A stretch of DNA of 64,000 bases from an uncultured virus (IMG/VR IMGVR_UViG_3300033463_000052) (taxonomy: Duplodnaviria; Heunggongvirae; Uroviricota; Caudoviricetes), in IMG/VR virus record IMGVR_UViG_3300033463_000052; one strand, written 5' to 3'. Shown here in pieces: positions 1,835 through 55,701 of this stretch. Positions within the stretch are counted from its first letter, which is position 1. Every line of letters begins with the position of its first letter. A program made the translations under genes and the position numbers. The notes beneath the pieces are model-generated. The model was not told where the DNA came from and ran no database searches. It worked only from the letters and a program-made list of their open reading frames with translations.

Positions 1835-1945
1835 TTATAAAATTCTCCTTACCTTAGAATTATTTTATTATATGAGTAAAAGGAACTGAGGTAAGCAGTT
1901 CCTTTTTAAAAGATAAGTTTGCGCTAACTTATCTACCTCTATTAT
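1835..1945 (-). ncRNA. structured 5' leader of homing endonuclease gene (copy 1)
   Basis: Multi-stem fold; loop CUUACCU (1889-1895) complementary to AGGUAAG (1848-1854) overlapping the SD. Confidence 0.7.
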
Positions 1946-1983
1946 ATTATATCATATTTTTAATATTTTGTCAAGTATTTTTT

Positions 1984-2601
1984 TCAACTAAATGGGTCAA
2001 AATCATCTTCATCATCAACAAAAGGTGAATCAGAATTAGATTCTGTATCATTATTGGTCACATTTTCATCAGAAAATGGATCAATAAATTCTTCCTTCTT
2101 GCTTTCTGCAACCTTAGATTCATCAATTTCCTTTAAGGCTGGGATAGTAAAATCTCCCTTTTCAATTGCTTCAAGAGAACGAACAGAGGCAACATAATTA
2201 CGAACACGCTTCTGGCCTTTAGTGTTAAGATATTCTTCATCAGCAATAATTAAACCAATATACTTCTTAACAAGAGTCTTTTCGTCAAAATTCCACTTAT
2301 AATTCTTATTTGACTTTTCAACAGCAGTACAGAATCCCTTAAACATTGAAAGGGCGGCTTCCTTGTAAGAACGAATAAGAGTACCAGCAATAGGCCACTT
2401 CTTATCCTTACGAGTATCAGAATCATAAAGCTTTTGGAAATAACCCTTATTATCTCCCTTTACAATATCGAAATAAATCTTAAGATATTCCTTATCTGAA
2501 ACATCTTCTACTGCCTTGATAGCACAAATATAAGCTCCCGGTTCAAGACGCTTAAAATCTGAATTTTCCTTAATATTTTCCCAATCGTTAATCTTCTTCA
2601 A
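1984..2601 (-). CDS. putative single-stranded DNA-binding protein
   Basis: LEPGAYICAI N-terminal motif, acidic tail ending DDFDPFS, directly downstream of Sak4-like gene. Confidence 0.65.
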   Translation of the reverse strand: MKKINDWENIKENSDFKRLEPGAYICAIKAVEDVSDKEYLKIYFDIVKGDNKGYFQKLYDSDTRKDKKWPIAGTLIRSYKEAALSMFKGFCTAVEKSNKNYKWNFDEKTLVKKYIGLIIADEEYLNTKGQKRVRNYVASVRSLEAIEKGDFTIPALKEIDESKVAESKKEEFIDPFSDENVTNNDTESNSDSPFVDDEDDFDPFS

Positions 2602-2617
2602 TTTTATTTCTCCTTAA

Positions 2618-3247
2618 TTAAAAATCTTCAAGTGCTTTAATAACCAAAGTAATATCATTATCAATGGTATCTTCATCAAAAGCCCCCATTGGGGTCTTTG
2701 CCGTACTATTATGTGCTCTTGTCTCAAAAATATATTTACCTTCTGATTCTTTTGCAACAAGCACTGTTGTCATCTTACTTTCAAGACAAATCTTATTAAG
2801 CTTTCTGCCATTTGTAAGCATACAAGTAAAACCATCATCACTTGTCTGTGAATGAGCCAAAAGAATTACATATAAATCTTCTCTCATTTTGTTTGAATAA
2901 TCTACAATATTGAAAACTGATTGAGCTAAATCCATCCATTTATCATATGTTTTTTCTTTAGCCCTTCTCATTTCATCACCAACCATAATGCCATTAAGAG
3001 TATCAATAATAAGATACTTAATATGCTTTTGCTTGGTATCAATTTGTTCCATTACCTTGTAAATCTGTTCTGCATCATCAGAACGATAATAGTTTTTGTT
3101 TTCTTTACAATACTGTTTTCGCCAGCCTTTCCAACTCAAACCCTTACCATCTGCATCAATATAAAAAGCTTCCTTATAATTAAGATTTCTAAGACTTGTT
3201 GTTTTACCAGACCCACTTGGGCCAATAATCATAATTGCCTTACTCAA
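2618..3247 (-). CDS. Sak4-like AAA ATPase (single-strand annealing protein)
   Basis: Walker A GPSGSGKT, Walker B LIIDT, LAH and AKTPMG motifs; SSB neighbour. Confidence 0.8.
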   Translation of the reverse strand: MSKAIMIIGPSGSGKTTSLRNLNYKEAFYIDADGKGLSWKGWRKQYCKENKNYYRSDDAEQIYKVMEQIDTKQKHIKYLIIDTLNGIMVGDEMRRAKEKTYDKWMDLAQSVFNIVDYSNKMREDLYVILLAHSQTSDDGFTCMLTNGRKLNKICLESKMTTVLVAKESEGKYIFETRAHNSTAKTPMGAFDEDTIDNDITLVIKALEDF

Positions 3248-3320
3248 ATTTTACATTCCTCCTAAAAATAGTTCAAGCCTTTTCGACTTTTCTATATTAT
3301 ATCATAAATAATTTTATTTG

Positions 3321-3856: not shown

Positions 3857-3886
3857 TTTTTTATTTGTTAAAATCTTGTGACGGAA

Positions 3887-4810: not shown

Positions 4811-4891
4811 AATACATATCTCCTTTTATTTTTTTATTTTTTTTGGTCTTTTTTAATTCCGTGTGTATTATATCATATAAAATCTATTTTG

Positions 4892-5101: not shown

Positions 5102-5420
5102 TTTTCAAAATTTCCTTTTTATTTTCCCATACATATTTAACAAATTTATCCCAATTTAATTTTAATTGGTCATAAACATCTATTTTTTCTTCTTTAAATT
5201 TATCCCATCGAGGCCAACAAGTTAGAATAATTTCATATTCACATTTTGACCAAAAATAATACATACAAATTCTTTTTAATTCTGTTGAAAAATCTTCAAT
5301 TGTTTTACATTTTTTTATTATTTTTTTTAAATCTTCACAAAATGAATAATGTTTAAAAACATTGAAAATAATTATTTTTCTTTTATTAATATCTTCAAGA
5401 TAAGTATTCCATTCCAACAT
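5091..5420 (-). CDS. conserved hypothetical phage protein
   Basis: YYFWSKCEYEII...KIDVYDQ motif; coupled to DnaE. Confidence 0.6.
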   Translation of the reverse strand: MLEWNTYLEDINKRKIIIFNVFKHYSFCEDLKKIIKKCKTIEDFSTELKRICMYYFWSKCEYEIILTCWPRWDKFKEEKIDVYDQLKLNWDKFVKYVWENKKEILKNEI

Positions 5421-8400
5421 TATAAATCCTCCTTTTTATAACATTTAATTATTATTTCCTTTTCTCCTGTTTTTAAAAATGAACCATTTTCTGATTTTCT
5501 AAACTTATCCTTTTCTTGGAAAACACAAGTTATAATGTCGCCTATTTCTGCTTTATGTGTTGCAGACCATTTTTTATTTACTTTATATTGTTTTGAAGCC
5601 CCATAATGAATATTATATAAAGTAAATTTTTGCGTTCCAAAAGAAGAAGATTCAATATCTGTAATAATCCATGTAGTAGTTGGAATAGAAACATCAGATA
5701 ATGTTGTATACCCAAGAAATTCAATTTGCCATTTTATCAAATCAAAAACTGTAGTCTTTTCAATGTTTGATTTTTTTATCATTTTTGAAATTAATTTTTT
5801 ATTATCTATATCACGGAATTGTTTTTCTGTTTCTTTACCAGAACATTCTTTAATAATATTAATTTCTTCTTCAGTAAGTTTAGATTTTGAAATTACTTTA
5901 CTATCAATATATTTTTTATAAATTTCAAATTCTGTCATCAATTTTTTAGGAGAACCAAATTGAGAAAAATAATTTAATTTAAACAGAATTTCAATAGCTT
6001 TACTATTTATTCTATTATCAGAAATTAAATATTGATAAATTTCTGCCCTATTTTTGACACCTTTTAAACTTAATTCATAAAGAGCTTCAGGAGTAGACTT
6101 TGGCATATCTTTAATACTTGTCATTGTTTGAATAATACAATTATTTTCTTTGTCAATATTAAATTGTCTATTATCATCTCCAAATTTAATTTCTTTAAGA
6201 GAAAATCCACGTTTAATCATTTCTTGTTTAATTAAAGAAACTTTATTTTTTTCTCCTTTATTAGTAAATCTTTGAAGAACTACTTTATAAAATTCCAAAG
6301 GATAATATGCTTTAAGATAAGCAATTGTAACACTATCAATAGCCATACAATAAGCATGGGCAGAATTACAAGTTATAATTCCATCATTTGCTACAAAGTT
6401 ATGACCAACATCTTCGCTCATTTCTACATCATAAACATCTTCAATAATATTTTTTGCAATTGAAATTATTTTTTCAGTATTACATTCAATCCCATTTTCA
6501 TATTGTTTTATCCTGCCATGTTTATAATGTATTTTTTTATGGCAAGAACAACATAACCACATATAATTATCTTCAATATTATTGAATCTATTAAAATCTT
6601 TATGATGCACTTCAAATCTTTTTTCTAAAGAATAAGTTTCCCCACAACATTCGCATTGGCATAATAAATTTATTTTTTTATTTCTATAGTTTTCATAAAC
6701 AACAGAATCACCATTTATCTTTTTTTGAAAACCACATTCACCCTTTTTAGGAAAATTATTTTCAAAATTATTTGTTAATCTTGTATTAAAAAATTTTTTC
6801 TTATATTCACCTTGAACATAAAGTAAATCATTAATTTTTAAATCTTTTAATAATTTAATTCCTTCAACTGTTGGGAATTTATGGTTTTCAGTGGCCTTAA
6901 TTTTTCTTCCTGTTTCTGTTTTTATAATATAAGTTAAAGCTTTTGGTTGTTTATAAATATCAATAATCTTATTTTTATAAATTTTTCCATCTTTCATTGA
7001 TAATCCATAACCATAACCATAAAGATTATATTTATCATGCAAACTTTTATGTCCTGTACTTTTTGCATAATTTATATCGTGTTTAATCTTATACATTTCT
7101 TCTATTGTTGGAATAAAATTGCCATTATTACTTGGTTTTTTAATAATTGTATCACCAGATACACAATTAAACCCATACGCCGCACTATTTTCTACAATAG
7201 TCCAAACTTGTGTGGCTAATTCATTTGCTTTTTCTATATCGTTTGTTTCACCAGTAGCAATAATAGCAAGTGCAAAATTTTTAATAAACTTTGGTTTTGC
7301 ATCTTTGATAATATAATCTTTCTTTTTAGAAATTGCTTTTATAATTGTATAAGTATCGCTCATAGGAAATCCAGCAAATTCCAAAACCTTCATAAGACTT
7401 TCTTGATAAAGAATAAAAGAAGAAGAACAATATTCATCTTGAAGTAATTGGTCAAGTGCTTTAATGCCATATTCAAAATGCTGTCTACTTTCAAAAGTAT
7501 GATACATAGATTGAAAAGAAGGTCTTATTCCTGCTACAAATTGAGTAAGTTCTGATATATTTTTAGGTTTATATCTCATTACTTTAGCAGTTGATTTAGG
7601 TTGCTCACATTGATTAACACATTGAGTAAAACCATTAGCATAAATATCCCAAACTTTTTTATCATCTTTTACTTTTTCAAGTAATTGGTTTACAGAATAT
7701 GGTTCAATCCCAATTTCTTTATAAATATCATAAGTTAATCCAATTGAATCAACAATAAGATAATCTTGTTTTAAATAGCCAAAAGCATCAATTGTTCCTG
7801 ATTCTATAACAGCAGTTAATACTTTATTTCCAGTAGCTTCAGATTTACATAATACAATTCCTATATCTGATTCTACATCACCATCATAAGCAATCGTAGC
7901 ACATGGATGCCCTTTTATAGTATCATAAATTCCTAAATATTTTTGGCAACCTTTTACTAAATCTTTATATTGATTATCAATATAATCTTCTATATTTATA
8001 TCTTCATTTTCTTCTGCGTGTTTTTTTGCTAATTCATAAGAACTTAATTGTTTAGAAACTTCATTTGCAGTTTCAGGAGAAATACCATTTGCTCTTGCAT
8101 ACATCTTCCAAGCGGCTTTTAATTTGAGTGTACCTAAAGCAATTAAATCATAAGTACCTAAATCCCCAATTAACTCCTTTTGTGCTTGAATAAATGGTTC
8201 TCTGGAACTTACGTTGTTGTCGATATCGGGCGGCGTATGCGATTCTAAAACTCTTTCTTTGGTTAGAAATCTTTCAGAGTACATAAGAACAGAGCTATTT
8301 ACTTTATCTACTTTTGTTAATCTTAAAAGCTTATTAAGATACATAGAAACAGCAGAACCGCGCCCTGTAGGTGTTAATACTCCACCATATTTTTCTTGCC

Positions 8401-9466
8401 CATATTTCATAATATAATATGACAAAATAAAATAATCTGCCATATTACAAGCTTCAATTTCTTTTATATCATGATTTATTTCTTTTCTATATTCTTCGTA
8501 TTTATCTTTATTAATATCCCATTTTTGTTCTTTCCATTCATTTTTCAAAATAGATTCAAAAATTTTATTTCTTTCTTCTTGTGTTTTATTTTTTAAAGAT
8601 TTAATTACAGGAACTTTTAATGAACGGTCAAGAATAATATCTTCAAATTTAAAAATGATATTTGTGTTATCTATTGCTTCTTTAATTTCTTCATTTTTCA
8701 AAATGTCTTGTTCTTGGAATCTTTTAAAAAGCACATTATAAGTAGGAAAATCCATATACCAACCCTCTTCATCTTCATAACTTATATGTGCTGATTCTAA
8801 TAAATCATCCCTATCTACCATTTGATTTTCATTAATAACATGACTATCAACACCAGCAATAATAGGAATATTTAATTCATTATGCATTGTGATAATGTGT
8901 TTATTTAATTCTTTCTGTGAATCAGTATTATGTGGTTGTACTTCAAGAAAAAAATATTTAAATCTATCAGCTAAATATTGAACAAAATCGTCAATATCTT
9001 CGTATTTATTCCAAAATGCAATACAAGCAGTAGTAATCATAACATCATTACCATCAAGCATATCTAACAATTCTTTATCTATTCTTGGGCGATAATAATA
9101 TCCGTCTTTATTAGCAATAGAAATAATCTTATTAATCTGTTTTCTTCCCTTATCATTCCTTGCTAATAAAATAATATGGCAATTAGACTTGTCTTCTTCA
9201 TGTCTATCTTTAACCCAATAAGCTTCAACACCAAAAACAAATCTAATATTAGTATTGTTCTTTTTATTATATTTTTCTAAATCATCATAAGTTTTAAAAT
9301 AATTCCCAGCCCATCCATGTTCAACAGTAGTATAGATACATTCCCTGTTTCCATATCTTTTTCTTAATTCGTTCCAATAATCTTTATGAACAAGTGGACT
9401 GTCCTTTGTATAAACATTAGATAATGAAGTATGCTTATGATAATTTACCCAAATAGGTTCTTCCAT
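5420..9466 (-). CDS. dnaE: DNA polymerase III alpha subunit (family C) with intein
   Basis: PHP domain (NYHKHT, GVEAY, DSH), GRGSAV, PPDIDN catalytic motif, YQE, YGFN...SAHAY. Confidence 0.95.
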   Translation of the reverse strand: MEEPIWVNYHKHTSLSNVYTKDSPLVHKDYWNELRKRYGNRECIYTTVEHGWAGNYFKTYDDLEKYNKKNNTNIRFVFGVEAYWVKDRHEEDKSNCHIILLARNDKGRKQINKIISIANKDGYYYRPRIDKELLDMLDGNDVMITTACIAFWNKYEDIDDFVQYLADRFKYFFLEVQPHNTDSQKELNKHIITMHNELNIPIIAGVDSHVINENQMVDRDDLLESAHISYEDEEGWYMDFPTYNVLFKRFQEQDILKNEEIKEAIDNTNIIFKFEDIILDRSLKVPVIKSLKNKTQEERNKIFESILKNEWKEQKWDINKDKYEEYRKEINHDIKEIEACNMADYFILSYYIMKYGQEKYGGVLTPTGRGSAVSMYLNKLLRLTKVDKVNSSVLMYSERFLTKERVLESHTPPDIDNNVSSREPFIQAQKELIGDLGTYDLIALGTLKLKAAWKMYARANGISPETANEVSKQLSSYELAKKHAEENEDINIEDYIDNQYKDLVKGCQKYLGIYDTIKGHPCATIAYDGDVESDIGIVLCKSEATGNKVLTAVIESGTIDAFGYLKQDYLIVDSIGLTYDIYKEIGIEPYSVNQLLEKVKDDKKVWDIYANGFTQCVNQCEQPKSTAKVMRYKPKNISELTQFVAGIRPSFQSMYHTFESRQHFEYGIKALDQLLQDEYCSSSFILYQESLMKVLEFAGFPMSDTYTIIKAISKKKDYIIKDAKPKFIKNFALAIIATGETNDIEKANELATQVWTIVENSAAYGFNCVSGDTIIKKPSNNGNFIPTIEEMYKIKHDINYAKSTGHKSLHDKYNLYGYGYGLSMKDGKIYKNKIIDIYKQPKALTYIIKTETGRKIKATENHKFPTVEGIKLLKDLKINDLLYVQGEYKKKFFNTRLTNNFENNFPKKGECGFQKKINGDSVVYENYRNKKINLLCQCECCGETYSLEKRFEVHHKDFNRFNNIEDNYMWLCCSCHKKIHYKHGRIKQYENGIECNTEKIISIAKNIIEDVYDVEMSEDVGHNFVANDGIITCNSAHAYCMAIDSVTIAYLKAYYPLEFYKVVLQRFTNKGEKNKVSLIKQEMIKRGFSLKEIKFGDDNRQFNIDKENNCIIQTMTSIKDMPKSTPEALYELSLKGVKNRAEIYQYLISDNRINSKAIEILFKLNYFSQFGSPKKLMTEFEIYKKYIDSKVISKSKLTEEEINIIKECSGKETEKQFRDIDNKKLISKMIKKSNIEKTTVFDLIKWQIEFLGYTTLSDVSIPTTTWIITDIESSSFGTQKFTLYNIHYGASKQYKVNKKWSATHKAEIGDIITCVFQEKDKFRKSENGSFLKTGEKEIIIKCYKKEDL
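6365..7165 (-). mobile_element. 267-aa intein in DnaE with internal HNH-type nuclease domain
   Basis: Begins CVSGDT after YGFN; block B IKATENHKF; ends VYDVEM...HNFVANDGIITCN followed by Ser; internal CECC...EVHHKD...LCCSCHKKIH. Confidence 0.92.
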
Positions 9467-10620: not shown

Positions 10621-11466
10621 TTAAATATCAGTATTATTAAAAATCATATCCTGCGACATAACATTTCTAATTTTATTATCACAAGACTTAACATATCTGG
10701 AAGTAACAGCAATATTAGAATGACCAAGCGCATCCCTAATAGTAGCCAAATCTACCCCATGTTCCAAAGAATTAGTTGCAAAAAACATTCTAATCCAATG
10801 TGGGGAAATACTATTTGCATAAGGGAGATTAGCTTTTTTAGCCGCACGAATAAGTGACCTTCTAAGACAACTTTCATCAGCAGTAACAAAAAGTTTATCT
10901 GTACCTTTTTTATTTTTATAATTCTTAGAAAGGTAATCATCAATATAATACTTGGCAGTATCATTAACAAAAATCTTTCTTTCCTTATTACCCTTACCTA
11001 CAATAACAATTGACCTATCTGTAGCAAGCGCAATTTTATATTCTTCCAAAGTAATATTTGCCATTTCAGTATAACGCAATCCAGTAGAAGCCATAAGCGC
11101 AACAATAGCTTTACCTTCAGCAGTATACATATTTTTAATAATATTCTTCATATCTTCAGAAGAAACATACTGTTTTTCTTTAGGATTATTCTTAACTTTT
11201 TCAAGTTCCAAAGCAGGATTGGAATGAATAACTTCAATCTTTTTAAGATACTTAAAGTAACTTTTGACAGCAGAAATTTTCAAATTAATAGTTGCAGGAG
11301 AATTATTAGAAATCTTCTTCAGCCATTCAAGCAAATCCACATATTTAATTTCATTTTCTTCTTTCCCAATAATATTAAGCATTTCGTTAATATGGGTAAT
11401 GTAACTTTTAATAGTGTTTTCAGATTTATGCATTGCTTCAAGATAAGAAATATAAGTATTCTCCAT
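10621..11466 (-). CDS. XerC/D-like tyrosine recombinase
   Basis: SENTIKSY, TGLRYTE, GKGNKER, HWIR, LGHSNIAVTSRY catalytic set. Confidence 0.93.
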   Translation of the reverse strand: MENTYISYLEAMHKSENTIKSYITHINEMLNIIGKEENEIKYVDLLEWLKKISNNSPATINLKISAVKSYFKYLKKIEVIHSNPALELEKVKNNPKEKQYVSSEDMKNIIKNMYTAEGKAIVALMASTGLRYTEMANITLEEYKIALATDRSIVIVGKGNKERKIFVNDTAKYYIDDYLSKNYKNKKGTDKLFVTADESCLRRSLIRAAKKANLPYANSISPHWIRMFFATNSLEHGVDLATIRDALGHSNIAVTSRYVKSCDNKIRNVMSQDMIFNNTDI

Positions 11467-11948: not shown

Positions 11949-12023
11949 TGGCTGGGGCGGGTTGAGTTGAACAACCTTACTATGGGTCAAAGCCATATAT
12001 CCAAGCCGTTAGATTACGCCCCA
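11949..12023 (-). tRNA. tRNA-Gln(UUG)
   Basis: Cloverleaf, anticodon loop CT-TTG-AC, encoded CCA. Confidence 0.85.
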
Positions 12024-12194
12024 ATATATAAAAACTTTTCTCCTAAATAAGATTCTAAAATAACGCCCTAAAGAATTTTAAAATCTATACAACGCTTGAA
12101 AAGTTGATTTGTTGATTTTATGTATTCGTGCGCACTCGTTTCACCTGCTAATAGGGATAGCTTTTGGGAACTAACAATAATCAACAGCGTTTCT

Positions 12195-12269
12195 TGGAGC
12201 CTCCATACAGAATCGAACTGTAATCTAAGCATTACAAGTGCCTTGTAATATCCTTTATACTATAGAGGC
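12195..12269 (-). tRNA. tRNA-Thr(UGU)
   Basis: GCCTCTA/TGGAGGC acceptor, CT-TGT-AA, TTCGA, CCA. Confidence 0.9.
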
Positions 12270-12274
12270 AAAAA

Positions 12275-12469
12275 TTAATTACATTTTTTATATAAATCTA
12301 TTGGACTATTCGCAGTACCAATTTTTTCATATCCATTTTTTAATATTTCCCAAAGAGTAAATTTTTCTTTCTTTGTATTTTGAGATATAATATATTCATT
12401 TCCATATTCAGAAATATATCTTACACCATAACCATCTTCAGATTTAGGAATTTGATTTACAATACTCAT
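12275..12469 (-). CDS. hypothetical protein
   Basis: 64 aa ORF directly after a sigmaA promoter. Confidence 0.6.
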   Translation of the reverse strand: MSIVNQIPKSEDGYGVRYISEYGNEYIISQNTKKEKFTLWEILKNGYEKIGTANSPIDLYKKCN

Positions 12470-12777
12470 ATATTATACCACACTTTTTATTATTTGTCAA
12501 GTATTTTTTTTAGAAGAAGGATGATTTAACTGCTATCCACAGAGAACTTCATCAAACTTGTGAATCCTATATATATACTTCTTCTTATATAAATCGACAG
12601 TTTTATTTCTACTTTGCCAAAGCTTCATTAAAACTGTCTTAGGTTTAACCACTCAACTATAGTCAGCTTATAGGCGGCAAACTCTACAAACCAACCATTT
12701 CAAAGGCAAGGATTTTAGCCTGTTTACAATCCCAACTTGGTACGCTTAGACCTATGACCATAGGCGTATTGGGATAT

Positions 12778-12853
12778 TGGAGTGGATAATGGGAATTGAA
12801 CCCACAGCATCCAGATTGGAAGTCTGGCACTCTGCCAATTGAGTTATATCCAC
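12778..12853 (-). tRNA. tRNA-Gly(UCC)
   Basis: CCAGA-CTTCCAA-TCTGG anticodon arm, TCCA end. Confidence 0.92.
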
Positions 12854-13144
12854 ATATTTTAAAATAGGTTTTTATCCTTCTATGCAGGATGCCTATAAGC
12901 ATTTCAACCTATCAACCCACTTTTCTTTTTCCTCGGACTGGATAAGGAACCTACGCTTACCAGCGGCAGTTTTTTGAAATGATACTTGCAAACATTAGTA
13001 GAATATTTTATTACCTTTTGTTATTACTACCATTCTAACGCAATTACACAAAGTAACTTGAGGGGCTTCTTTTCAGGACTTATTTAAACCCATACGACTG
13101 TTCCGCTAAACGCTATTCACTTGCGGTGTCCACGTTGAATTGAT

Positions 13145-13260
13145 ATGTAATCGTTACCCCATGTCCAGCTTTTCACTTATCATGCGTTGATTTGAATAAG
13201 CAGTTTACCCTATCATTTCAAGATACTAACTTATTTCTCTTGGATTATTCACGATTACAT
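13145..13260 (-). ncRNA. putative structured ncRNA directly 3' of tRNA-Glu
   Basis: Perfect 10-bp closing stem atgtaatcgt/acgattacat; no ORF. Confidence 0.55.
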
Positions 13261-13337
13261 TGGTGATGCTATGGGGACTTGAACCCCAAAATTCCAGCGT
13301 GAAAGGCTGGTGACTTTACCTATTCGTCTATAGCACC
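13261..13337 (-). tRNA. tRNA-Glu(UUC)
   Basis: CCAGC-CTTTCAC-GCTGG anticodon arm, CCA. Confidence 0.92.
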
Positions 13338-13492
13338 ATAATTAAACTCCCCCACGAACAACACATTAGTCTGTTCATTATCTTTGTCTTGATATTATCT
13401 CAAATGGGCTGGTATGTGATTTTCCAGCCTTGTGGGGCTTGAAAGTTCACTTAAGAGCTTACAAATCAAAATCGTCCAATTGTTACCATTCC

Positions 13493-13649
13493 ATATGCCC
13501 TTATGTTCTGGTGTCTGGTGTTATGGACAATTTACCAGCACTTTTCCCCTCAATGGGCGGGAAGTCCAGCTACTCTCTGTTAAGGTCGTTGCTCAAATTT
13601 CGGATGTTACAGCATCCTCACCGTAATCTGTAACTTACGGATGGCATAT
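13493..13649 (-). ncRNA. putative ~157-nt RNA with kissing loop and pseudoknot
   Basis: 7-bp closing stem; hairpin loops GUUACAG and CUGUAAC complementary; UGGAC/GUCCA pairing. Confidence 0.6.
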
Positions 13650-13709
13650 TCGTATTTCATTTGTTTTCCTTATTGGAATGGCACAAAGCAATACTGAAAT
13701 AAAAGCCTC

Positions 13710-13785
13710 TGGTCTGAGTGGGGAGACTCGAACTCCCGGCATCGTGATCCCAAATCACGCATTCTACCAACTGAATTACACCCAG
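13710..13785 (-). tRNA. tRNA-Pro(UGG)
   Basis: CGTGA-TTTGGGA-TCACG, TTCGA, CCA. Confidence 0.92.
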
Positions 13786-13800
13786 ATATTTTTAAAAAAG

Positions 13801-13877
13801 TGGTAGACGGTTGGGGACTTGAACCCCAATCTTTGGATTATAAGTCCAAGGCTTCTAACCGATTGAGCTAACCGTCT
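13801..13877 (-). tRNA. tRNA-Ile(UAU)
   Basis: TTGGA-CTTATAA-TCCAA, full cloverleaf, ACCA end. Confidence 0.9.
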
Positions 13878-14278
13878 AAATCAATTTTTTTATTTCTGAG
13901 GGATACCAAGTTTTTCCTCTGCCCTTCCCTTTATTAGCACCCCTATAATTTTTAGTTAAAGAATAACAATTTGGGTATAAAAGAATTAAATTTTCTGGAC
14001 GATTATTTTTATAATTCCCATCTATATGTTCAACTTCTAAAGGTATTAATCCTGTAAATGGATTTCTTTCACCCCATCCCCCATCCACATTTACTACATT
14101 TACGGTCTGGTATGTTGCCCCAATGGTCAGTTTTATGAAAACCATCTATTTCACCACTTAACAATTTTCTTTCCCATTCTTTTCTTTCAAATTCATGTTG
14201 ACATTTACTACAACAATATTTTCTTCCTTTATAAGTTTTTTCAATTTCTTTCCTACAATTTAAACATTTTATATTCAT
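13876..14278 (-). pseudogene. frameshifted HNH endonuclease
   Basis: Two overlapping ORFs joined at a GGATGGG duplication (~14073-14086); LYPNCY in place of the usual LCPNCH. Confidence 0.75.
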
Positions 14279-14380
14279 TTTTTAATCTCACCCATTTAAA
14301 GATTTATTTTTATAGGTGAGATAGAAGAAATAGGCTTCTATCTCTAAATATAATAGTTTGCAACCTACTATAACCCTATA
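14279..14380 (-). ncRNA. structured 5' leader of homing endonuclease gene (copy 2)
   Basis: Loop CCUAUUU (14328-14334) pairs with AAAUGGG (14291-14297) at the SD. Confidence 0.65.
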
Positions 14381-14382
14381 TG

Positions 14383-14455
14383 TGGATGCAGGAATAGGAA
14401 TCGAACCTATGGAATTTAGTTTATGAGACTAAAGTGAATACCAATTCTTCCTGCT
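14383..14455 (-). tRNA. atypical tRNA with CAU anticodon (Met or Ile2)
   Basis: TTTAGT-CTCATAA-ACTAAA, ATAGG-TTCGATT-CCTAT, CCA; short D arm, unpaired first position. Confidence 0.7.
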
Positions 14456-14498
14456 ATATTATAGGATTCATTTTTCAGAATCCTATTTTTATAAAATT

Positions 14499-15266
14499 TC
14501 ATTCTTTTTTGTTTATACACTTAAATAAATGTGTTTTTTCATTATAGATTAAGAAAGCATACTTACTTGTATGAAATCTTTTATGGTCAGAAGAAGTTTG
14601 AAAAACAATTAAATTATTAAATTTATTATTATGTTTATTTTCATCAATATGATGAACTGTATTTTCTTTTTTTAATTTTCCATTTAACAATTTATTTGCA
14701 ATATAATCGTGTTCAAAATAAGATGGAAAATCACAAATTTCTTTTAAACTTCTTTTCTTTATAATTATATATTCTTTATTATTATTTGTTTCATAATAAG
14801 GAATTTTTATATTTAAAGTTTCTATATAATCAAACCATTTTTTAATTTCTTCTTTATTATGATTTTCAAATATATGATAAAAATTTTTATCTAAATAGCT
14901 CCAAGTTGTATTTCTTTTATACCCATTTTCATATTTATTTTTCATTGTTTGGACTTGTTTTGCTATTTCTTTACAATTTTCTTTTGTTTTCCCTTTTCTA
15001 TTATTTTTAATATAAATAGCAAATTTATCTACATCTTTTCGATTTGGGTTATATTTACATCTTAATTCATGTTGTGCTAAACTATTTTTATTTTTGCATT
15101 CTTTTTTACAAAATTTACAATATAAATCATCATGGTCTAAATGATATGAATTAATTTTATCATTTTTATAACCATTTATACAAGCATTTTCGTGTTTTTT
15201 AATACAAGCAACATCAATTAATCTTCCACAATTTTTACAAGCTACTTTTTTATGTATATTATACAT
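14499..15266 (-). CDS. HNH endonuclease with N-terminal Zn-finger-like repeats
   Basis: CKNC..H..C, CKFC..HELRC, VHHIDENKHNNKFNNL...HKRFH. Confidence 0.8.
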   Translation of the reverse strand: MYNIHKKVACKNCGRLIDVACIKKHENACINGYKNDKINSYHLDHDDLYCKFCKKECKNKNSLAQHELRCKYNPNRKDVDKFAIYIKNNRKGKTKENCKEIAKQVQTMKNKYENGYKRNTTWSYLDKNFYHIFENHNKEEIKKWFDYIETLNIKIPYYETNNNKEYIIIKKRSLKEICDFPSYFEHDYIANKLLNGKLKKENTVHHIDENKHNNKFNNLIVFQTSSDHKRFHTSKYAFLIYNEKTHLFKCINKKE

Positions 15267-15368
15267 TTATTTTTCCTCCTACATAGGTAATTATTTTATA
15301 TAATAAACAGTAATTTTAATAATGTAGGTATTAAAAAACATCCGTCAATGCTGTCCTGTTTATTATAT
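15267..15368 (-). ncRNA. structured 5' leader of homing endonuclease gene (copy 3)
   Basis: 13-bp closing stem; loop CCUACAU (15322-15328) pairs with AUGUAGG (15278-15284) overlapping AGGAGG. Confidence 0.7.
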
Positions 15369-15369
15369 T

Positions 15370-15446
15370 TGGTAGCGCCCCCGAGATTCGAACTCGGCCT
15401 GTAACGATTTTAAGTCGTTTGTCTCCTGCCTCTGGACTACGGCGCC
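15370..15446 (-). tRNA. tRNA-Leu(UAA), short variable arm
   Basis: AACGA-CTTAAAA-TCGTT, TTCGA, ACCA; 77 nt. Confidence 0.88.
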
Positions 15447-15607
15447 ATATCTAACTTACTTTTATATTATATCACAATTTTCTTCATTTGTCAAGAACTT
15501 TTTTTATGGCGACTCGTTCCTCACACAGTTCATTAAGGTAAGCGGATTTCTAACCACCATTGTGTATAAATGCTGTTCACTTCATTTGACTTCTATATTA
15601 TATCACA

Positions 15608-15847
15608 TTACTTGTTATTTGTCAAGTATTTTTTTACAATTTTACTTATTTTATGTTGAGTATATTTATATTTTATTTTATCCATAATCTTATATCTACG
15701 AAAACCAAGACAGTTGCCATTTTCATCTATGTGGTCACACATTAAACCTCCAAAATAATAACAATAATCACAATATTTTTTTCGTAAGATATAATTATTT
15801 ATAAATTCTATAATATTATATTTTAAATTAAAAATTATTTTATTCAT
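15608..15847 (-). CDS. Cys-rich hypothetical protein
   Basis: 79 aa ORF in operon. Confidence 0.5.
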   Translation of the reverse strand: MNKIIFNLKYNIIEFINNYILRKKYCDYCYYFGGLMCDHIDENGNCLGFRRYKIMDKIKYKYTQHKISKIVKKYLTNNK

Positions 15848-15849
15848 TT

Positions 15850-16032
15850 CTAAAATTGAAAAATTTCATCAATACATTCAATTATCTTTTCAATTCTTTT
15901 AATTTCAAAACTATCTAAATTTTTACTATTGTATTTTAAAAAATTAATTAAAGGGAGTCTTACACCAACCGCTAAATAATTTCTTAAATAATCGTTACAA
16001 ATCCAATTACAAATTTTAAATTTTAATCCCAT
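15850..16032 (-). CDS. hypothetical protein
   Basis: 60 aa coupled ORF. Confidence 0.5.
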   Translation of the reverse strand: MGLKFKICNWICNDYLRNYLAVGVRLPLINFLKYNSKNLDSFEIKRIEKIIECIDEIFQF

Positions 16033-16033
16033 A

Positions 16034-16321
16034 TTACTTCCTTACATAATGTTTCTTCCAAAATTTATTTAAAAATTCTTCTTTTGATTTATAACTTTCT
16101 TTTAAATATTTATATCTATTTAAATCATTTAATGCTTCATACTTACTCCATCTTGAAATATAATCATGAATTTCCCATGAATTAAATAATCTTCTATATT
16201 TATTCCCTTTTGAAAAATGATTATTTTTTCTTCTTACTTTTTTATTGGCTAATCTTTTCCAATATTTAGCCCCATTAGGACGGTCTGTACATACAGGATT
16301 TTTCTTATAACTTCTTGACAT
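16034..16321 (-). CDS. highly basic hypothetical protein
   Basis: MSRSYKK...KRLANKKVRR...SWEIHDY. Confidence 0.65.
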   Translation of the reverse strand: MSRSYKKNPVCTDRPNGAKYWKRLANKKVRRKNNHFSKGNKYRRLFNSWEIHDYISRWSKYEALNDLNRYKYLKESYKSKEEFLNKFWKKHYVRK

Positions 16322-16343
16322 ATGTCAACCATCCCATCTTTTT

Positions 16344-16580
16344 TTATTCTAAAATACTATCTTTTACATTATTTTTTATATAATCAACTGCTTCTGTGAG
16401 TGTATATTCCCATCTTACAAAATTCCATGTTACATCATAATATCTATATGAATTAAATCTTTTATAATCTCTTTTTTCTTTATATATACAATAAATCATT
16501 TCATCATTATTAAAAAATGATTTTCTTTTAATAATAATAATATGACCATTTTTTGATTCCCAAACAATTTTTTCTTTCAT
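16344..16580 (-). CDS. hypothetical protein
   Basis: 78 aa coupled ORF. Confidence 0.5.
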   Translation of the reverse strand: MKEKIVWESKNGHIIIIKRKSFFNNDEMIYCIYKEKRDYKRFNSYRYYDVTWNFVRWEYTLTEAVDYIKNNVKDSILE

Positions 16581-16581
16581 A

Positions 16582-16773
16582 TTAAAAAATGTAATAAAAC
16601 AACGCCTTTAACGTTTTCTTCCAATTATTATTTTTCCATTCATATCCATTACAATATAATTTATTATTTATTTGTGTAACTTTATGAGTATATTTCCCAT
16701 TTTTTAATTCAGGTAAATTAATTTCTTTACCATTTTCATAAAATTTTCCTAATGCACTATTAAAATATATCAA
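16582..16773 (-). CDS. hypothetical protein
   Basis: 63 aa coupled ORF. Confidence 0.5.
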   Translation of the reverse strand: MIYFNSALGKFYENGKEINLPELKNGKYTHKVTQINNKLYCNGYEWKNNNWKKTLKALFYYIF

Positions 16774-17093
16774 ATAAAATCATCCTTATAATTTTCAATT
16801 TCATAATTCATAGAATCAATTTTTCTTTTATCAGAAGGTTTATAATTTATAGCAGGACAATAATTTTTTCCTTTTTTTCTTGTTTTAGGTGAACACCAAG
16901 GACAACTACAATGAATTTTATTTTTTGAATATTCATGTAAATTATTGTACATACCAATTTGTATATAAGATTGCCAACTACAAAAGGGATTATTATATTC
17001 TTTTAAATTATAACAGCTTACAGCTAAATCAATATTTCTTTTTCTTTCTGCTTTAGAAAAATCTTTTTTTCTTCTCCATGCTCTATTTCTCAT
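16770..17093 (-). CDS. basic Zn-binding hypothetical protein
   Basis: MRNRAWRRKK...YSKNKIHCSCPWCS. Confidence 0.65.
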   Translation of the reverse strand: MRNRAWRRKKDFSKAERKRNIDLAVSCYNLKEYNNPFCSWQSYIQIGMYNNLHEYSKNKIHCSCPWCSPKTRKKGKNYCPAINYKPSDKRKIDSMNYEIENYKDDFI

Positions 17094-17171
17094 ATAAAAT
17101 CCCCTTTATAATAATTTTTAGATTTAAGGGGGTAAAATTCCCTTTTTAAAAAAGTTTTACCCCCTTAAAAA

Positions 17172-17477
17172 TTAAAACCAAAAACTGTCAAGTAAATCAA
17201 AAAGATTCAAAGAATCTTCTACTTCAGTATCAAAAGTCATGTGAAACGAACCATAGTCATTGATAAACTTATTAAGCTTTTCACGATAAACCTTATCTGC
17301 TTCAAAACGAGCCTTATAAGCATCTTCGACTTCCTTTGCACGAACCTTGCGTGTTTCAGAAAGCTTCTTCTTTTCAGCTTCCTTTACCGTAATAGCTTCA
17401 TCATACTTCTTTTCTGCTTCCAGACATTCATCAACTGTAGCGTAATACTTGTTAGTCTTTTCACTAAAAATCTTCAT
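17172..17477 (-). CDS. helical hypothetical phage protein
   Basis: 101 aa, strong SD, downstream hairpin terminator (~17124-17167). Confidence 0.7.
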   Translation of the reverse strand: MKIFSEKTNKYYATVDECLEAEKKYDEAITVKEAEKKKLSETRKVRAKEVEDAYKARFEADKVYREKLNKFINDYGSFHMTFDTEVEDSLNLFDLLDSFWF

Positions 17478-17537
17478 TTGTAAATTCCTTCCTTTACATG
17501 AAAAATAATTATATTTACCCCACGAATCTTAGGGGTA

Positions 17538-17613
17538 TGGTGTGTCTGGAGGGACTTGAACCCTCGACCCCATGATTAAAAGTCATGTGTTCTACCATCT
17601 GAACTACAAACAC
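17538..17613 (-). tRNA. tRNA-Lys(UUU)
   Basis: CATGA-CTTTTAA-TCATG, CCA. Confidence 0.92.
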
Positions 17614-17655
17614 ATATATATACTGTCAAAAAAAATAATTGACAGTATATTTTTT

Positions 17656-19059: not shown

Positions 19060-19096
19060 CCTTTTTATTAAAATTTAAATGCAGGATATTCCTGCA

Positions 19097-19188
19097 TGGC
19101 GGCGCTGGTAGGATTTGAACCCACGCACAGCTATTAACTGCCTTTCGATTTTCAAGACCGACCCCTTAAGCCCCTTGGGTACAGCGCC
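19097..19188 (-). tRNA. tRNA-Ser(UGA)
   Basis: TCGGT-CTTGAAA-ATCGA, long variable arm, GCCA end. Confidence 0.92.
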
Positions 19189-29919: not shown

Positions 29920-30348
29920 TTTTTATTCCTCCATTTGTTTGATGTGAGTATAATATAACATATAGGGTTTCTTTTGTCAACTATTTTTTTAAAGAATCTC
30001 AGAAAAAATAATTGTTTGCTGAATGATTTCAGAATCAGAAAAATTAAAAGTAAAAATTTTTTTAAGGAATTTAATAAACATTTTTTGCATCCTCCCGCAA
30101 AATTTATTTTGTAATGTAAATATATCGCATGAAGACTATTATGTCAACGACTTTCTTTTGTAACTTTTGTCAATTTTCTGTTTCTTTTCGTCATTTTTTA
30201 AAATGGAAAAATTTTTAAATATCTAAATATAAAAATATCATTTTGAAAAATGAATAAAATAAATAAAATTAAAATAAAAAATCTTCATTTTGAAAAATGA
30301 GAATTTTAAAATAGATAAAAAAATAAAGGGGAAAAATCCCCTTTATTT

Positions 30349-30573
30349 TTATTTTTCTTTGATGTAAGAAGGGACATTTCTATAACAAGAAATGTAAAGC
30401 GTATCTGTCTCATTGTCTGCGTATGCTGTCCAATTCCATCCATAAACGCCCGAATTATAACCAAGTTCAACAAGGGAAAATTTGCTCTTGTTATCGTCTT
30501 GATAACAGCAGTAACCAACTTTGCAATGAGTGTACCAGTTATACCAGCGGCGCAAATCTTTAATAGTGGACAT
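30349..30573 (-). CDS. hypothetical early protein
   Basis: YNSGVYGWNW motif; AGGAGG SD; own promoter. Confidence 0.65.
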   Translation of the reverse strand: MSTIKDLRRWYNWYTHCKVGYCCYQDDNKSKFSLVELGYNSGVYGWNWTAYADNETDTLYISCYRNVPSYIKEK

Positions 30574-32780: not shown

Positions 32781-32844
32781 AATAAATAAAGTTTTGTCAT
32801 TTTGAAAAATGAGACTTGTTAAAATTTTCACAATCGGTTACAAA

Positions 32845-32876
32845 AAAATTACAGGGAATTATTTCCCTGTAATTTT
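32845..32876 (-). terminator. intrinsic terminator
   Basis: aaaattacaggga/tccctgtaatttt hairpin after amidoligase gene. Confidence 0.7.
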
Positions 32877-32882
32877 TCCTTT

Positions 32883-46356: not shown

Positions 46357-46426
46357 AAATATTTTAATATAAAATATGGGGGAAATTGTTCCCCCATATT
46401 TTATATAGAACGGAAGTGAAAATAGG

Positions 46427-52333: not shown

Positions 52334-52412
52334 GTTATAGAAAACTGATAAACAATGTGCTGGTTCAAGAATGTTTGTTGTTTTTGAATATAATTGAGAG
52401 GTAAATTAAATT

Positions 52413-52694: not shown

Positions 52695-53110
52695 AAAGAA
52701 GCCACGCTTATAAAATAAAAGATTTATTATATAAATCATCTTATTATCTTTCTGATGATGATGCTTTAGATGGTATTGAATTGTTCCCATTTTGGGAAAT
52801 AAATAAAGAATATAAAATTAATGATAGATTTCGTTATAATCAAAAGCTTTATAAAGTTATTCAAAATCATACTTCACAAGCAGATTGGTTGCCAGATATT
52901 GCACACTCACTTTATACAGAGGTAGAAAAAAGTGGGCAAGGTGATACACCAAACAATCCAATCCCTTACAATAATAATATGGAATTATTTAATAGTAAAT
53001 ATTATTCACAAGATAATGTTGTATATTATTGTTTTCGTGATACTGGTATTCCTGTTTATAATAACCTTGTTGATTTAATTGGGTTATATGTTGAAGTTTA
53101 TGTAGGATAA
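52691..53110 (+). CDS. carbohydrate-binding module (CBM5/12-like) protein
   Basis: W....Y..ND..RY...LYKVIQNHTSQADW.P. Confidence 0.7.
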   Translation: MKRSHAYKIKDLLYKSSYYLSDDDALDGIELFPFWEINKEYKINDRFRYNQKLYKVIQNHTSQADWLPDIAHSLYTEVEKSGQGDTPNNPIPYNNNMELFNSKYYSQDNVVYYCFRDTGIPVYNNLVDLIGLYVEVYVG

Positions 53111-53140
53111 TTATAAAGTAGAAGTAAAAGGATAGATAAA

Positions 53141-54028
53141 ATGGCTGAAGTCACAAATGGTAAATATGCCAAAAATGTTTGTGAATTTTGTGGTGAAAAA
53201 AAGACGGCAACTTTGTTTTATCCTAATTATGGTGGGCAATATTCTGAAAGAACAAAAACAAGATATTGTAAAGATTGTTGTTCAAAAAGGCTTGCTTATT
53301 ATAAAGGATTTTTAAATGAGCAAGCCTCTTTGTGGATGATATTGTCTGAATTAGGGATTCCATTTATTAAAAAGATTTATAAACAAGTTGTAGAGGAAAG
53401 AAGTATAAATCGTACTGGAAAACAACCAGAACTTGTTGGTCATTATTTAAAAAGACTTATAGAATCAGATACAGTTTATTCTGGATTTTGGGAATCTGAT
53501 ATTGGTATAAATGAAATTATTGAAAAACAAAATAATGAAGATGAAAAAGCTAATATGAATTTAGATGAAATGCAAGAAATTTGGGGTAAATATCCAGACG
53601 ATGAATATAATGAAGCATATGTTTTTCTTCAAAAAACTTTCAAAGATTATACAGAAGATTTGCCCGGTGAAATGGACGCTAATTTAATAAATCGTTATAG
53701 GGATTTATGTAAAGCAGAGTATAGAAAAAGAAAAGCAGATGAAAATGGTGATATTGGGGAAATAAAGCAAGCCCAAGCAAATTTAACAGATATGCTTAAA
53801 TTGCTTAAATTAAATGATTTTCAAAGCAATCAAAAATCTGAAACTGAAAAAATGATTGAAAGAAAGATTTGGATGATTGAAAATACAAAACCAGCAGAAT
53901 GTGAAGATTTAGATATGTATAAAGATGTTAGTGGATTTGAAACTACATGGAATCATATTTTAAGATGTGTTAAAAATCTTGTAGCTGGTTCAAGAGAATA
54001 TCCAGATGTTCCAAGGAGTGAAAGATGA
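53141..54028 (+). CDS. hypothetical protein, probable terminase small subunit
   Basis: N-terminal CEFC/CKDC; coupled directly upstream of TerL. Confidence 0.5.
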   Translation: MAEVTNGKYAKNVCEFCGEKKTATLFYPNYGGQYSERTKTRYCKDCCSKRLAYYKGFLNEQASLWMILSELGIPFIKKIYKQVVEERSINRTGKQPELVGHYLKRLIESDTVYSGFWESDIGINEIIEKQNNEDEKANMNLDEMQEIWGKYPDDEYNEAYVFLQKTFKDYTEDLPGEMDANLINRYRDLCKAEYRKRKADENGDIGEIKQAQANLTDMLKLLKLNDFQSNQKSETEKMIERKIWMIENTKPAECEDLDMYKDVSGFETTWNHILRCVKNLVAGSREYPDVPRSER

Positions 54029-55290
54029 AATCGGCAGAACGTGGTCTTCGTAGAAGATTCATGGAAAATCAATTAATTACAACACAATATCGTACTTCTT
54101 ATAAAAAAAGTAATCAAGAAAAAGAAGAAAATTTAATACATTGGATAACTTATTTTAGAAGAAATTGGCATATTTATGTTGATTTTATATTAGGAATAAA
54201 ATTAAGACCTTTCCAGCAGATAATGATTTATTTAATGGGCGTAAGCGAAATATTCTTTGGAATTTGTAGCCGTGGTTTAAGTAAATCTTTTATTGCTGGT
54301 TTAGGTGCTATTGTAAAAATGAATTTATATCCATACTCAGAAATTGTTATAACTTCTTCTACTGTTCCACAAGCTAATAAACTTGTAGAAAAAAAGATAA
54401 GGGATGAATTGATAAAGAAACTATCCCCTTATCTTTTATATATGTATGAAAAAGAATATATTGTTATAACAAGGGCAGAAGATGGATATAAAATTGAAAA
54501 TAAATTAAATGGTTCTACTTTAGTTGTCTTGGCTTGTTTAGATTCCAGTCGTGGCTCAAGAACCACGATGTTAATTTATGAAGAAACAAGGTTATTAAAG
54601 AAAACAATTATTGATTCAGTTTTTGAAAAAATGAGCCACCCAAGACAAGCGAAATATTTAGAAAATCCATTATATTCTTCTAATCCAAGATGGTTAGAAG
54701 AATGTCAGCATATATATATTACAAGCGCTCGGTTTAAATTTGAATGGTTTTGGTTACTATTTAAGAAAACATTTGTAAGAATATTTACAGATAAAAAGAC
54801 TAAATGTAATATATTTGCTGGTGATATATTTATGGCAATTGACAATGGATTAAAAACTTGGGCAGACTATAGAAATGGTGTTAATGGCGACCAATATGAT
54901 TTTCGTATGGAAGATTTAAATGAAATGATAGGGGAAGCTGATGATGCTTTCTTTACTATACAATCATTTAGAGAAAATCAAATTATCGAAGAATGTTTTT
55001 ATCCACCTAAAAGTGATGATTTATATATAATAGATTTTGATTCTATTCACCCAAAACAGGAAAATGAAATAAGAATAGTAGGGGTTGACTATGCTTTTGC
55101 TAATACAACAAAAGAAAATCAAAAGAATGACAATACTATTATTATGTGTATTTCTGGTATATGGAAAAAGAATAGATTTGAAAAAAGATTAGAATATATA
55201 GAATTACATGAAGCAAGTGATTCATTAGGTGCGGCAGATAGGGCAAGGGAATTATTTTGGTTATATCATGCTGACTATTTAGTACCAGAT
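54025..55290 (+). CDS. terL: terminase large subunit, exon 1
   Basis: LRPFQ, SRGLSKS (Walker A), SRGSR, LIYEE (Walker B), ITSA, GVDYA, ND. Confidence 0.88.
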
Positions 55291-55600
55291 TCAGTGTGAG
55301 TCTGACTCCATAGTGATATGGTTTAAAAACCTATTGAACTGACTGGAAAACCCTTAGAGCTATATAAACTACAACGTATAGATGAAATAAGCTAAAGCGT
55401 GAATGTTTGAAAATTATATAGATTGGGCAATCAGCAACTAAGCCCCGAATAGGGGAAAGCTCAACGACTATCCCGTAAGGGAGTACACTACAAGCGATTG
55501 GTAGTGGAAGTGGTAGGTATCTTATTTATAAGATAAAGATATAGTCTGAACTTATAAGAAATTATAAGAAGATAAGGTGTAGCGACCTTTAATATAAAAA

Positions 55601-55701
55601 AATAATTAAAGAGGACAGGGAGTAGCTACCTTTTATAATACTGATACTATTATAATTACTCTTTAATTATATAAATTTACTTTGTATCAGAAGGTGATTT
55701 T
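55601..55701 (+). ncRNA. structured 5' leader of homing endonuclease gene (copy 4)
   Basis: 12-bp closing stem; loop CUGAUAC (55641-55647) pairs with GUAUCAG (55684-55690) abutting the SD. Confidence 0.7.

Follow-up and report, generated by a model that had tools for sequence, protein, structure and literature searches.

Homing endonucleases need to be expressed sparingly and with the host intron or operon left undisturbed, and to our knowledge the hairpins of T-even phages are the only solution described so far. In the passages of PMC2988022 that deal with I-TevI, I-TevII, I-TevIII, segB and Aeh1 mobE, the ribosome-binding site (RBS) is sequestered in hairpins. Late transcripts that start inside the T4 hairpin structure are described in passages of PMC2988022 and PMC3984707 as escaping repression, and loss of the I-TevI hairpin as impairing splicing of the td intron (PMC2988022). 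Here we analysed a stretch of 64,000 nucleotides (nt) with 29% G+C, hereafter the window, from an uncultured Caudoviricetes virus (IMG/VR record IMGVR_UViG_3300033463_000052). Its four stand-alone homing endonuclease genes each carry a leader that contains a hairpin with a 7-nt loop (L3) and, at or adjoining the Shine-Dalgarno sequence, a 7-mer that complements the entire loop. An earlier note made from the sequence alone had reported the four genes with their leaders, loops and 7-mers, and all of them were found where it had placed them. Two of the leaders, which we number copies 3 and 4, are members of one conserved and undescribed RNA family (type A), in which a three-way junction presents L3 to a small hairpin at the RBS.

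As far as the excerpted account of the T-even hairpins goes, the likeness is close: a cis-acting structure pairs the Shine-Dalgarno sequence of homing endonuclease genes, both intron-borne and free-standing, segB lies in a tRNA cluster much as copies 2 and 3 do, and the rationale given is that less nuclease is made and that the intron stays free of ribosomes. The T-even structures are presented in the same source as individual hairpins, each with an internal late promoter (PMC2988022). Here, in contrast, a three-way junction supplies a second loop that would kiss the RBS hairpin, and one homologous family, type A, extends across phages and nuclease families. ColE1 RNA I/RNA II and R1 CopA/CopT are trans-acting antisense regulators that work by loop-loop contact. 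These systems and the guanidine-II riboswitch, as outlined in part of PMC9300104, share with the leaders complementary loops of 6-7 nt, one of them on a hairpin that carries or abuts the RBS; the leaders differ in that both loops lie on one mRNA, complement each other in full and covary freely, whereas ColE1 and R1 act in trans and guanidine-II depends on a ligand and fixed loop letters. A further likeness is to riboswitches in which a hairpin loop pairs with the downstream RBS region. The preQ1-II and SAM-II pseudoknots sequester the Shine-Dalgarno sequence in this way, but the leaders match no Rfam family, the letters that pair in them vary, and they have no evident ligand pocket. The lariat-capping ribozyme of twin-ribozyme group I introns, of about 190 nt, is likewise an RNA domain in a group I intron, upstream of an endonuclease open reading frame (ORF) and serving its expression. 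In the sections of PMC4167309 that describe it, it belongs to eukaryotic nucleolar rDNA introns and caps the mRNA, whereas the type A leader is a 70-nt phage junction that has no ribozyme core and also occurs outside introns. Full-text searches for RNA structures of endonuclease genes yielded the T4 hairpins and general motif surveys, none describing the type A fold; in the main part of a phage RNA survey with more than ten thousand candidates (PMC10690425), homing endonucleases occur in the reference list only, and its supplementary lists may hold the motif unnamed. The kind of regulation is already known from T4; the RNA that would perform it is new.

The contact between L3 and its target 7-mer is Watson-Crick throughout in copies 1, 3 and 4 and includes one G-U pair in copy 2 (coordinates of all features are collected in Table 1). 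In all four copies the 7-mer is bordered by a short inverted repeat, which would place it in the loop, L4, of a further short hairpin, P4. The Shine-Dalgarno sequence is paired in P4 just upstream of the start, most weakly in copy 3. Since the 7-mer is itself a hairpin loop, the modelled contact is better described as a loop-loop kiss between hairpins than as the plain pseudoknot that had been proposed, the pairing of loop and 7-mer as such being retained. The minimum free energy (MFE) folds of copies 3 and 4 match helix for helix and form the same closed three-way junction: P1 of 12-13 base pairs (bp), a 3-nt junction, a 16-nt P2, an abutting P3 of 8 bp capped by L3, a second 3-nt junction and the 3' strand of P1 (P1'). 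In copy 4, P4 is part of the MFE fold and its 3' strand holds the entire Shine-Dalgarno sequence; in copy 3 the Shine-Dalgarno sequence overlaps L4 and the 3' strand of P4. Fold z-scores of the four leaders against dinucleotide shuffles are -2.8 to -3.9.

Table 1 Coordinates of the leaders, nuclease genes and neighbouring features in the window, in order of position
Feature	Coordinates	Strand	Basis
NUMOD4/HNH_3/NUMOD3 endonuclease gene behind copy 1	1391..1834	minus	Pfam, PHROGs
Copy 1, type B leader	1835..1939	minus	fold, loop scan
Copy 1 P1 (3 bp only), P2, P3	1937-1939 with 1874-1876; 1911-1934; 1878-1906	minus	
Copy 1 L3 and target	1889-1895; 1848-1854	minus	
Copy 1 P4 (9-nt loop containing target)	1841-1861	minus	
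Promoter directly upstream of copy 1	1946..1974	minus	sigma-70 consensus 12/12
tRNA genes, ten, on one strand	11949-19188	minus	
HNH gene behind copy 2, broken, two frames (14069-14278 and 13876-14145)	13876..14278	minus	Pfam, PHROGs
Copy 2, type B leader	14279..14380	minus	fold, loop scan
Copy 2 P1, P2, P3	14373-14379 with 14312-14317; 14353-14371; 14318-14344	minus	
Copy 2 L3 and target	14328-14334; 14291-14297	minus	
Copy 2 P4 (9-nt loop containing target)	14284-14304	minus	
tRNA-Met, immediately 5' of copy 2	14383..14455	minus	
Zn-finger/HNH homing endonuclease gene behind copy 3	14499..15266	minus	Pfam, PHROGs
Copy 3, type A three-way junction	15298..15368	minus	MFE fold, model 70-84 bits
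Copy 3 P1, P2, P3	15356-15368 with 15298-15310; 15337-15352; 15329-15336 with 15314-15321	minus	
Copy 3 L3 and target	15322-15328; 15278-15284	minus	
Copy 3 P4 (3 bp)	15275..15287	minus	L4 15278-15284 complements L3
tRNA-Leu (anticodon UAA), immediately 5' of copy 3	15370..15446	minus	
Promoter of tRNA-Leu	15466-15494	minus	consensus 12/12
Group I intron (approximate ends)	55297..56520	plus	core match to known phage introns
Copy 4, type A three-way junction	55602..55670	plus	MFE fold, model 88-101 bits
Copy 4 P1 and 3-nt junctions	55602-55613 with 55659-55670; 55614-55616, 55656-55658	plus	
Copy 4 P2, P3	55617-55632; 55633-55640 with 55648-55655	plus	
Copy 4 L3 and target	55641-55647; 55684-55690	plus	
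Copy 4 P4 (7 bp; L4 55684-55690)	55677..55697	plus	strands 55677-55683, 55691-55697
GIY-YIG + NUMOD3 homing endonuclease gene behind copy 4, intron-borne	55702..56508	plus	Pfam, PHROGs

The assignment of copies 3 and 4 to one family is based on covariance models. The first model (R1) was built from the two copies and a relative of 73% identity, and in R1 and its successors (to R3) they were the sole full-length matches in the 64 kb with filters off. Model searches of phage and metagenome DNA returned at least ten further type A lineages. Among 79 loci encoding relatives of the copy-4 GIY-YIG nuclease, six carry the junction and 73 are without it; the proteins of the junction-bearing relatives are all at least 43% identical to that of the window, and the junction was also found in the record of a cultured Enterocloster phage. 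A search of IMG/VR with the pattern of invariant junction letters hit nine places, all nine of them true members. A slightly relaxed pattern hit 112 places in metagenome contigs, with a P1 of 7-14 bp in 14 and of at most 4 bp in 98, and a looser IMG/VR pattern (at least 118 matches) added, among the matches listed, five more lineages and an orphan copy. The model detected the junction once in four of five whole phage records and twice in the fifth (G003). In total there were 22 matches in 21 sources at E <= 3.5e-7 with the second model, which a negative-control pattern match failed. Bacterial and archaeal genomes gave 23 pattern matches, none accepted by the model, with the strictest pattern, so that absence from these genomes is not shown; a search for relatives of the copy-3 nuclease returned the same phage only. 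The comparison with Rfam that had been recommended gave no family for the leaders: with Rfam 15 only tRNAs reach the gathering score in the window, and the leaders alone, listed to E <= 10, score at best 10-24 bits against gathering scores of 36-100, with none suggestive. Type A is a definable RNA family, open to modelling and deposition.

The earlier proposal that the letters differ and the pairing is kept holds across the family of copies 3 and 4: each of the three junction stems covaries, as does the pairing of loop and target. In the final junction alignment of 21 distinct sequences (24 pairs, 500 cells), standard pairs occupy 96.2% of the cells, and both partners vary in 19 of the 24 pairs, with a covariation score of 0.67. 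When partners were slid by 1-3 columns as a control, 40-57% of cells were paired, 5-9 pairs changed and the score fell to 0.07-0.15. In addition, compensatory changes occur in P3 and P2 among close relatives. Positions without variation comprise both junctions, each of 3 nt, the A-U and the G-U with which P2 begins, the two closing pairs of P3 and the base at which the loop starts; the G-U is kept in 21 of 21 sequences. P1 contains changes from A-U to G-U, and the model scores about 70 bits lower on the reverse strand. The two G-U observations and the far weaker scores of the reverse strand show that the conserved signal is an RNA on the sense strand of the nuclease and not an inverted repeat in DNA.

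The kiss could be examined independently of the models, which exclude L4. With L3/target pairs counted by script, 18 of 20 distinct sequences contain a perfect Watson-Crick complement of L3 over its full length (6 or 7 nt), located 22-26 nt after the start of the 3' strand of P1. Seven different L3 sequences occur among the 18, and an eighth is present in the second copy of G003. Several L3 loops resemble the anti-Shine-Dalgarno sequence, and their partner is the Shine-Dalgarno sequence itself. Furthermore, the bases that flank the target form a P4 of 5.2 bp on average, compared with 1.0 bp at positions slid by 1-6 nt. The two exceptions to the full complement are L405 and L384 (5 of 7 bases); the latter is an intron in which the nuclease ORF has decayed to a GIY-YIG stub of about 15 codons. 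In another intron, L402, the leader is kept and the ORF is deleted. A MAFFT alignment carried through the start codon placed the targets out of register and was unusable for counting these pairs.

In type A lineages the downstream ORF starts 7-20 nt after L4. It encodes a GIY-YIG nuclease in at least five lineages, with catalytic domains only 29-44% identical, a Zn-finger/HNH nuclease at copy 3, and double-motif LAGLIDADG nucleases with an N-terminal helix-turn-helix (HTH) elsewhere: a 319-amino-acid (aa) ORF matches LAGLIDADG_3 at E = 5e-13, and a second ORF does so at E = 7.5e-7 when read through two in-frame TAG codons. These TAG codons lie at the same places in the related contigs L090 (minus strand, about 1-861) and L162, where reading through them yields a complete nuclease with both motifs; either the contigs share a pseudogene or the phage translates TAG as an amino acid. 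One further ORF has an HTH-type N-terminus and is cut by the end of the locus, and another, of 118 aa (L429), has no Pfam or PHROG match. By these matches the type A leader occurs before GIY-YIG, HNH and LAGLIDADG genes in phages of gut, rumen and other metagenomes, in agreement with the idea that it accompanies unrelated nuclease families. The genomic contexts differ as well. In copy 4 and five other lineages the leader lies within a group I intron, immediately behind hairpins P9/P9.1, and L121 and L384 occupy an earlier intron position. Copy 3 is free-standing after tRNA-Leu, L151 and L429 each begin directly where another gene stops, and L175 follows a promoter of its own and has no recognisable intron core. 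Like the window, the phage record G003 has two type A leaders: L425, in an intron, precedes a GIY-YIG gene, and L429, free-standing, precedes the 118-aa ORF, which may be another nuclease type. P2 is identical in copy 4, L121/L175 and L429 while P1, P3, the loops and the downstream genes differ, the mosaic pattern expected if leaders are exchanged between cassettes. This indicates that a regulatory RNA, besides a protein gene, is part of the mobile unit, and the type A leader could serve as a marker for nuclease cassettes and their boundaries.

Within the window, the design is confined to the nuclease genes. Among 62 ORFs of at least 80 aa scanned against PHROGs, only the four genes of Table 1 are stand-alone nucleases. 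We then scanned 87 gene starts, namely 86 crude calls with a Shine-Dalgarno-like motif and the broken HNH start, for a first hairpin with a stem of at least 6 bp and a loop of 6-8 nt, a second hairpin with a loop of 6-9 nt ending at most 14 nt from the start codon, and at least six complementary loop bases, at least two of them G or C. With a second stem of at least 3 bp, four of the 87 starts passed, exactly those of the four nuclease genes, and none of the 83 others; thirty shuffles of the upstream regions gave a mean of 0.6 per 87. Raising the second stem to at least 4 bp left three (copies 1, 2 and 4, with copy 3 lost) against a shuffled mean of 0.2. The kissing-hairpin design is clearly specific to nuclease genes in the window. 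Two of the cassettes are placed 2-3 nt behind tRNA-Met and tRNA-Leu, the junction of copy 3 beginning 2 nt after the latter; tRNA 3' processing would therefore create the 5' ends of leaders 2 and 3.

Given the anatomy of the leaders and the T4 precedent, the most likely function is repression in cis of nuclease translation, at initiation. In the mechanism we propose, the P1/P2/P3 junction would present L3, pre-organised on the rigid junction where P2 and P3 abut; after a short A/U linker P4 would follow, with L4 as the exact complement of L3 and with the Shine-Dalgarno sequence in its 3' strand, its loop or both. The kiss of L3 and L4 would lock P4 closed and exclude the 30S subunit, and the nuclease would be made at a low level only, or from transcripts or conformers without the clamp. 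Type A would travel with nuclease ORFs of unrelated families, in group I introns and in free-standing cassettes. Repression might leak at a constant low level, or it might be relieved by a promoter within the A/U linker, as in T4, by processing or by a factor that targets the invariant junction. We assign a probability of roughly 0.65 to this reading as a whole, that is, a cis-acting RNA clamp on the RBS, with type A as a mobile family and the type B pair of copies 1 and 2 (see below) on the same plan. Such a loop-loop contact would amount to a compact, sequence-programmable translational clamp.

Several points weigh against this reading. In the Enterocloster phage lineage the best Shine-Dalgarno sequence lies 3' of P4 and is not paired by it, which argues against direct Shine-Dalgarno pairing in every lineage, and in copy 3 the P4 stem is limited to 3 bp. 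The junction L405 is an orphan that leads into no gene; a promoter follows it, and a Zn-finger nuclease-like gene lies on the opposite strand. The junction alignment was fitted to the model and so favours the structure, a bias that the slid controls share only in part, and kinship among the sequences inflates the cell counts. The thresholds of the scan were picked after the leaders had been seen, and not too much weight should be placed on its precise odds. Every family member was reached through patterns derived from copies 3 and 4, which leaves the diversity of the family and its non-nuclease contexts under-sampled. Copies 1 and 2 have no homologues outside the phage of the window, which puts their pairings beyond a covariation test; P3 of copy 1 also resembles the stem of a two-way terminator, and the MFE fold of copy 2 is a plain RBS hairpin in competition with the junction. 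Taken with these points, the observation made in the earlier note is confirmed, and its interpretation is supported as far as sequence analysis goes.

A temporal switch as in T4 would use the same parts differently, with the clamp present only on long early transcripts and a promoter in the linker producing late transcripts that lack L3. The same arrangement has been described for T4 I-TevI/II/III, segB and mobE in the corresponding passages of PMC2988022, and the linker is A/U-only in all lineages, with a -10-like sequence 6-8 nt before L4. However, the linker has no fixed conserved motif beyond its A/U richness, the recognisable promoters of the window all have a full -35/-10 consensus and none of them lies within a linker, and no late-promoter motif could be defined for this phage. 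We regard such a switch as unlikely, though not negligibly so.

The second question is whether copies 1 and 2 belong to the phenomenon at all. A single architecture upstream of all four genes had been claimed, and this stands for the topology only: copies 3 and 4 alone are in the family, and copies 1 and 2 are without detectable homology to it. With the three type A models copy 1 lies in the noise (12-14 bits; E = 6.6, 2.1 and 4.8), and copy 2 reaches 12.6 bits (E = 4.6) with the second model and is unlisted to E = 10 with the first and third. Both score among simple-hairpin noise and are not type A by these models. Pattern searches of IMG/VR with the P3 stems of copies 1 and 2 and free loops gave 20 and 2 matches, of which only those in the same phage were related, and an anchored pattern from both copies gave two, one in the same phage and the other in unrelated sequence. 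The junction is absent from all 80 relatives of the copy-1 nuclease; one of the 80 scored for a complement between loop and RBS, and this case rests on a mis-set start. The MFE fold of copy 1 is a junction closed by three pairs only, and in copy 2 a rival helix of 11 bp joins the 3' strand of P3 to the Shine-Dalgarno sequence. By this evidence copy 1 could be a chance complementarity over a terminator and copy 2 a plain RBS hairpin. On the other hand, copies 1 and 2 pass the kissing-hairpin scan that all 83 other genes failed. They share the order P1-P2-P3-P1'-linker-P4, with 6-bp P4 stems, 9-nt loops and an L3/L4 complement at a spacing unlike that of type A, and they align with each other at z = 4.2, a value that none of 300 shuffles equalled. 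The shared elements pointed out earlier, the junction letters of copies 3 and 4 and a P2-loop element of copies 1 and 2, are both real, and the latter recurs in P2 of L384, a true family member. A terminator scan of 1300-2700 on both strands returned no terminator-like site; by eye, the A and U runs that flank the copy 1 P3 stem pair with each other. We consider it rather doubtful that the two copies stand outside the phenomenon, and take them for a second pair, type B, that is specific to this phage and would follow the same plan.

A bolder version of the clamp, in which type A is a self-contained, horizontally mobile RNA module that recombination swaps among unrelated nuclease genes and from introns to free-standing cassettes or back, and in which its junction core, with the invariant G-U, senses a phage or host signal that opens the clamp at the proper time in infection, is a long shot; if true, the leader would represent a new class of RNA, riboswitch-like or responsive to a protein, that serves selfish nucleases alone.

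The junction might instead be a peripheral domain of group I introns that serves folding or insulation, shielding the ribozyme core from the ORF, with no role in translation. At least six lineages are intron-borne just after P9/P9.1, the P2 loop resembles the loop of the adjacent P9.1-like hairpin, and leaders are kept in introns whose ORF is deleted (L402) or decayed (L384). Nevertheless, no intron core lies near the free-standing copy 3, L151 and L429, and none is recognisable at L175, which has its own promoter. Type A occupies two different intron positions and always abuts the ORF start, and the covarying partner of L3 is the RBS region. In addition, the junction is present in only six of the 79 loci of GIY-YIG relatives, and L010-L018 and L021 show an intron core upstream of the ORF without it. 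A purely intronic role is improbable. The P9.1-like hairpin itself, at 55575-55591 (+) just upstream of copy 4, has a loop nearly the same as the P2 loop, which suggests a possible extra tertiary or alternative contact in which part of P2 pairs with the hairpin.

It is very improbable that the kiss activates or stabilises the message, either as a 5' shield against exonuclease or as a pseudoknot that activates translation, of the kind found close to the repZ RBS in plasmid ColIb-P9. A P1 at the exact 5' end expected from tRNA 3' processing in copies 2 and 3, and the one lineage with its Shine-Dalgarno sequence outside P4, would fit; in most lineages, however, L4 or the 3' strand of P4 is the Shine-Dalgarno sequence and several L3 loops are anti-Shine-Dalgarno-like, so that pairing should block initiation. 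The least probable reading is a ligand or factor switch in which the kiss is gated by a small molecule, or by a protein of phage or host, bound at the invariant junction bases and G-U: the invariant junctions, first two P2 pairs, P3-closing pairs and first loop base do exceed the needs of base pairing, but the fully complementary and freely variable loops need no ligand to kiss, no Rfam riboswitch matches, and the element has only 70 nt and precedes selfish nucleases with no obvious link to a metabolite.

The intron that carries copy 4 interrupts a gene (54025-55299 and 56521-57102) which, by the PHROGs order, adjoins the upstream side of the portal gene. Its core matches those of the Twort nrdE intron and of about 240 further phage records, the group I intron model of Rfam is silent on 55297-56520, and the region is absent from the record nearest to the window. 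Contigs from RNA-labelled bovine-gut runs of three studies cover the intron, leader and nuclease gene at about 55346-56570 (+) and hardly the exons, several of them ending at 55346. These contigs come from close relatives and break at the conserved intron core, and DNA carry-over is possible; the coverage could reflect stable excised intron RNA or mere assembly breaks at the conserved core, and we draw no conclusion from it.

Elsewhere in the window, many promoters match the sigma-70 consensus at 12 of 12 positions, and PHROGs matches identify a DNA polymerase, an integrase-like gene, the portal and further structural genes. Strong G+C hairpins flanked by A/U at 30317-30352, 32843-32878 and 46367-46406 score with the models on both strands and are probably bidirectional terminators with no relation to the leaders. 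The tyrosine-integrase-like gene (10621-11466, minus; phrog_1, E = 6e-40) has the polymerase module on one side and the tRNA cluster on the other, in a phage that otherwise resembles a large lytic type. The DNA polymerase (1348 aa; 5420-9466, minus) contains an endonuclease-like stretch (phrog_2340) at residues 914-988, which may be an in-frame nuclease or intein-type insertion and hence a fifth trace of mobile elements in the window.

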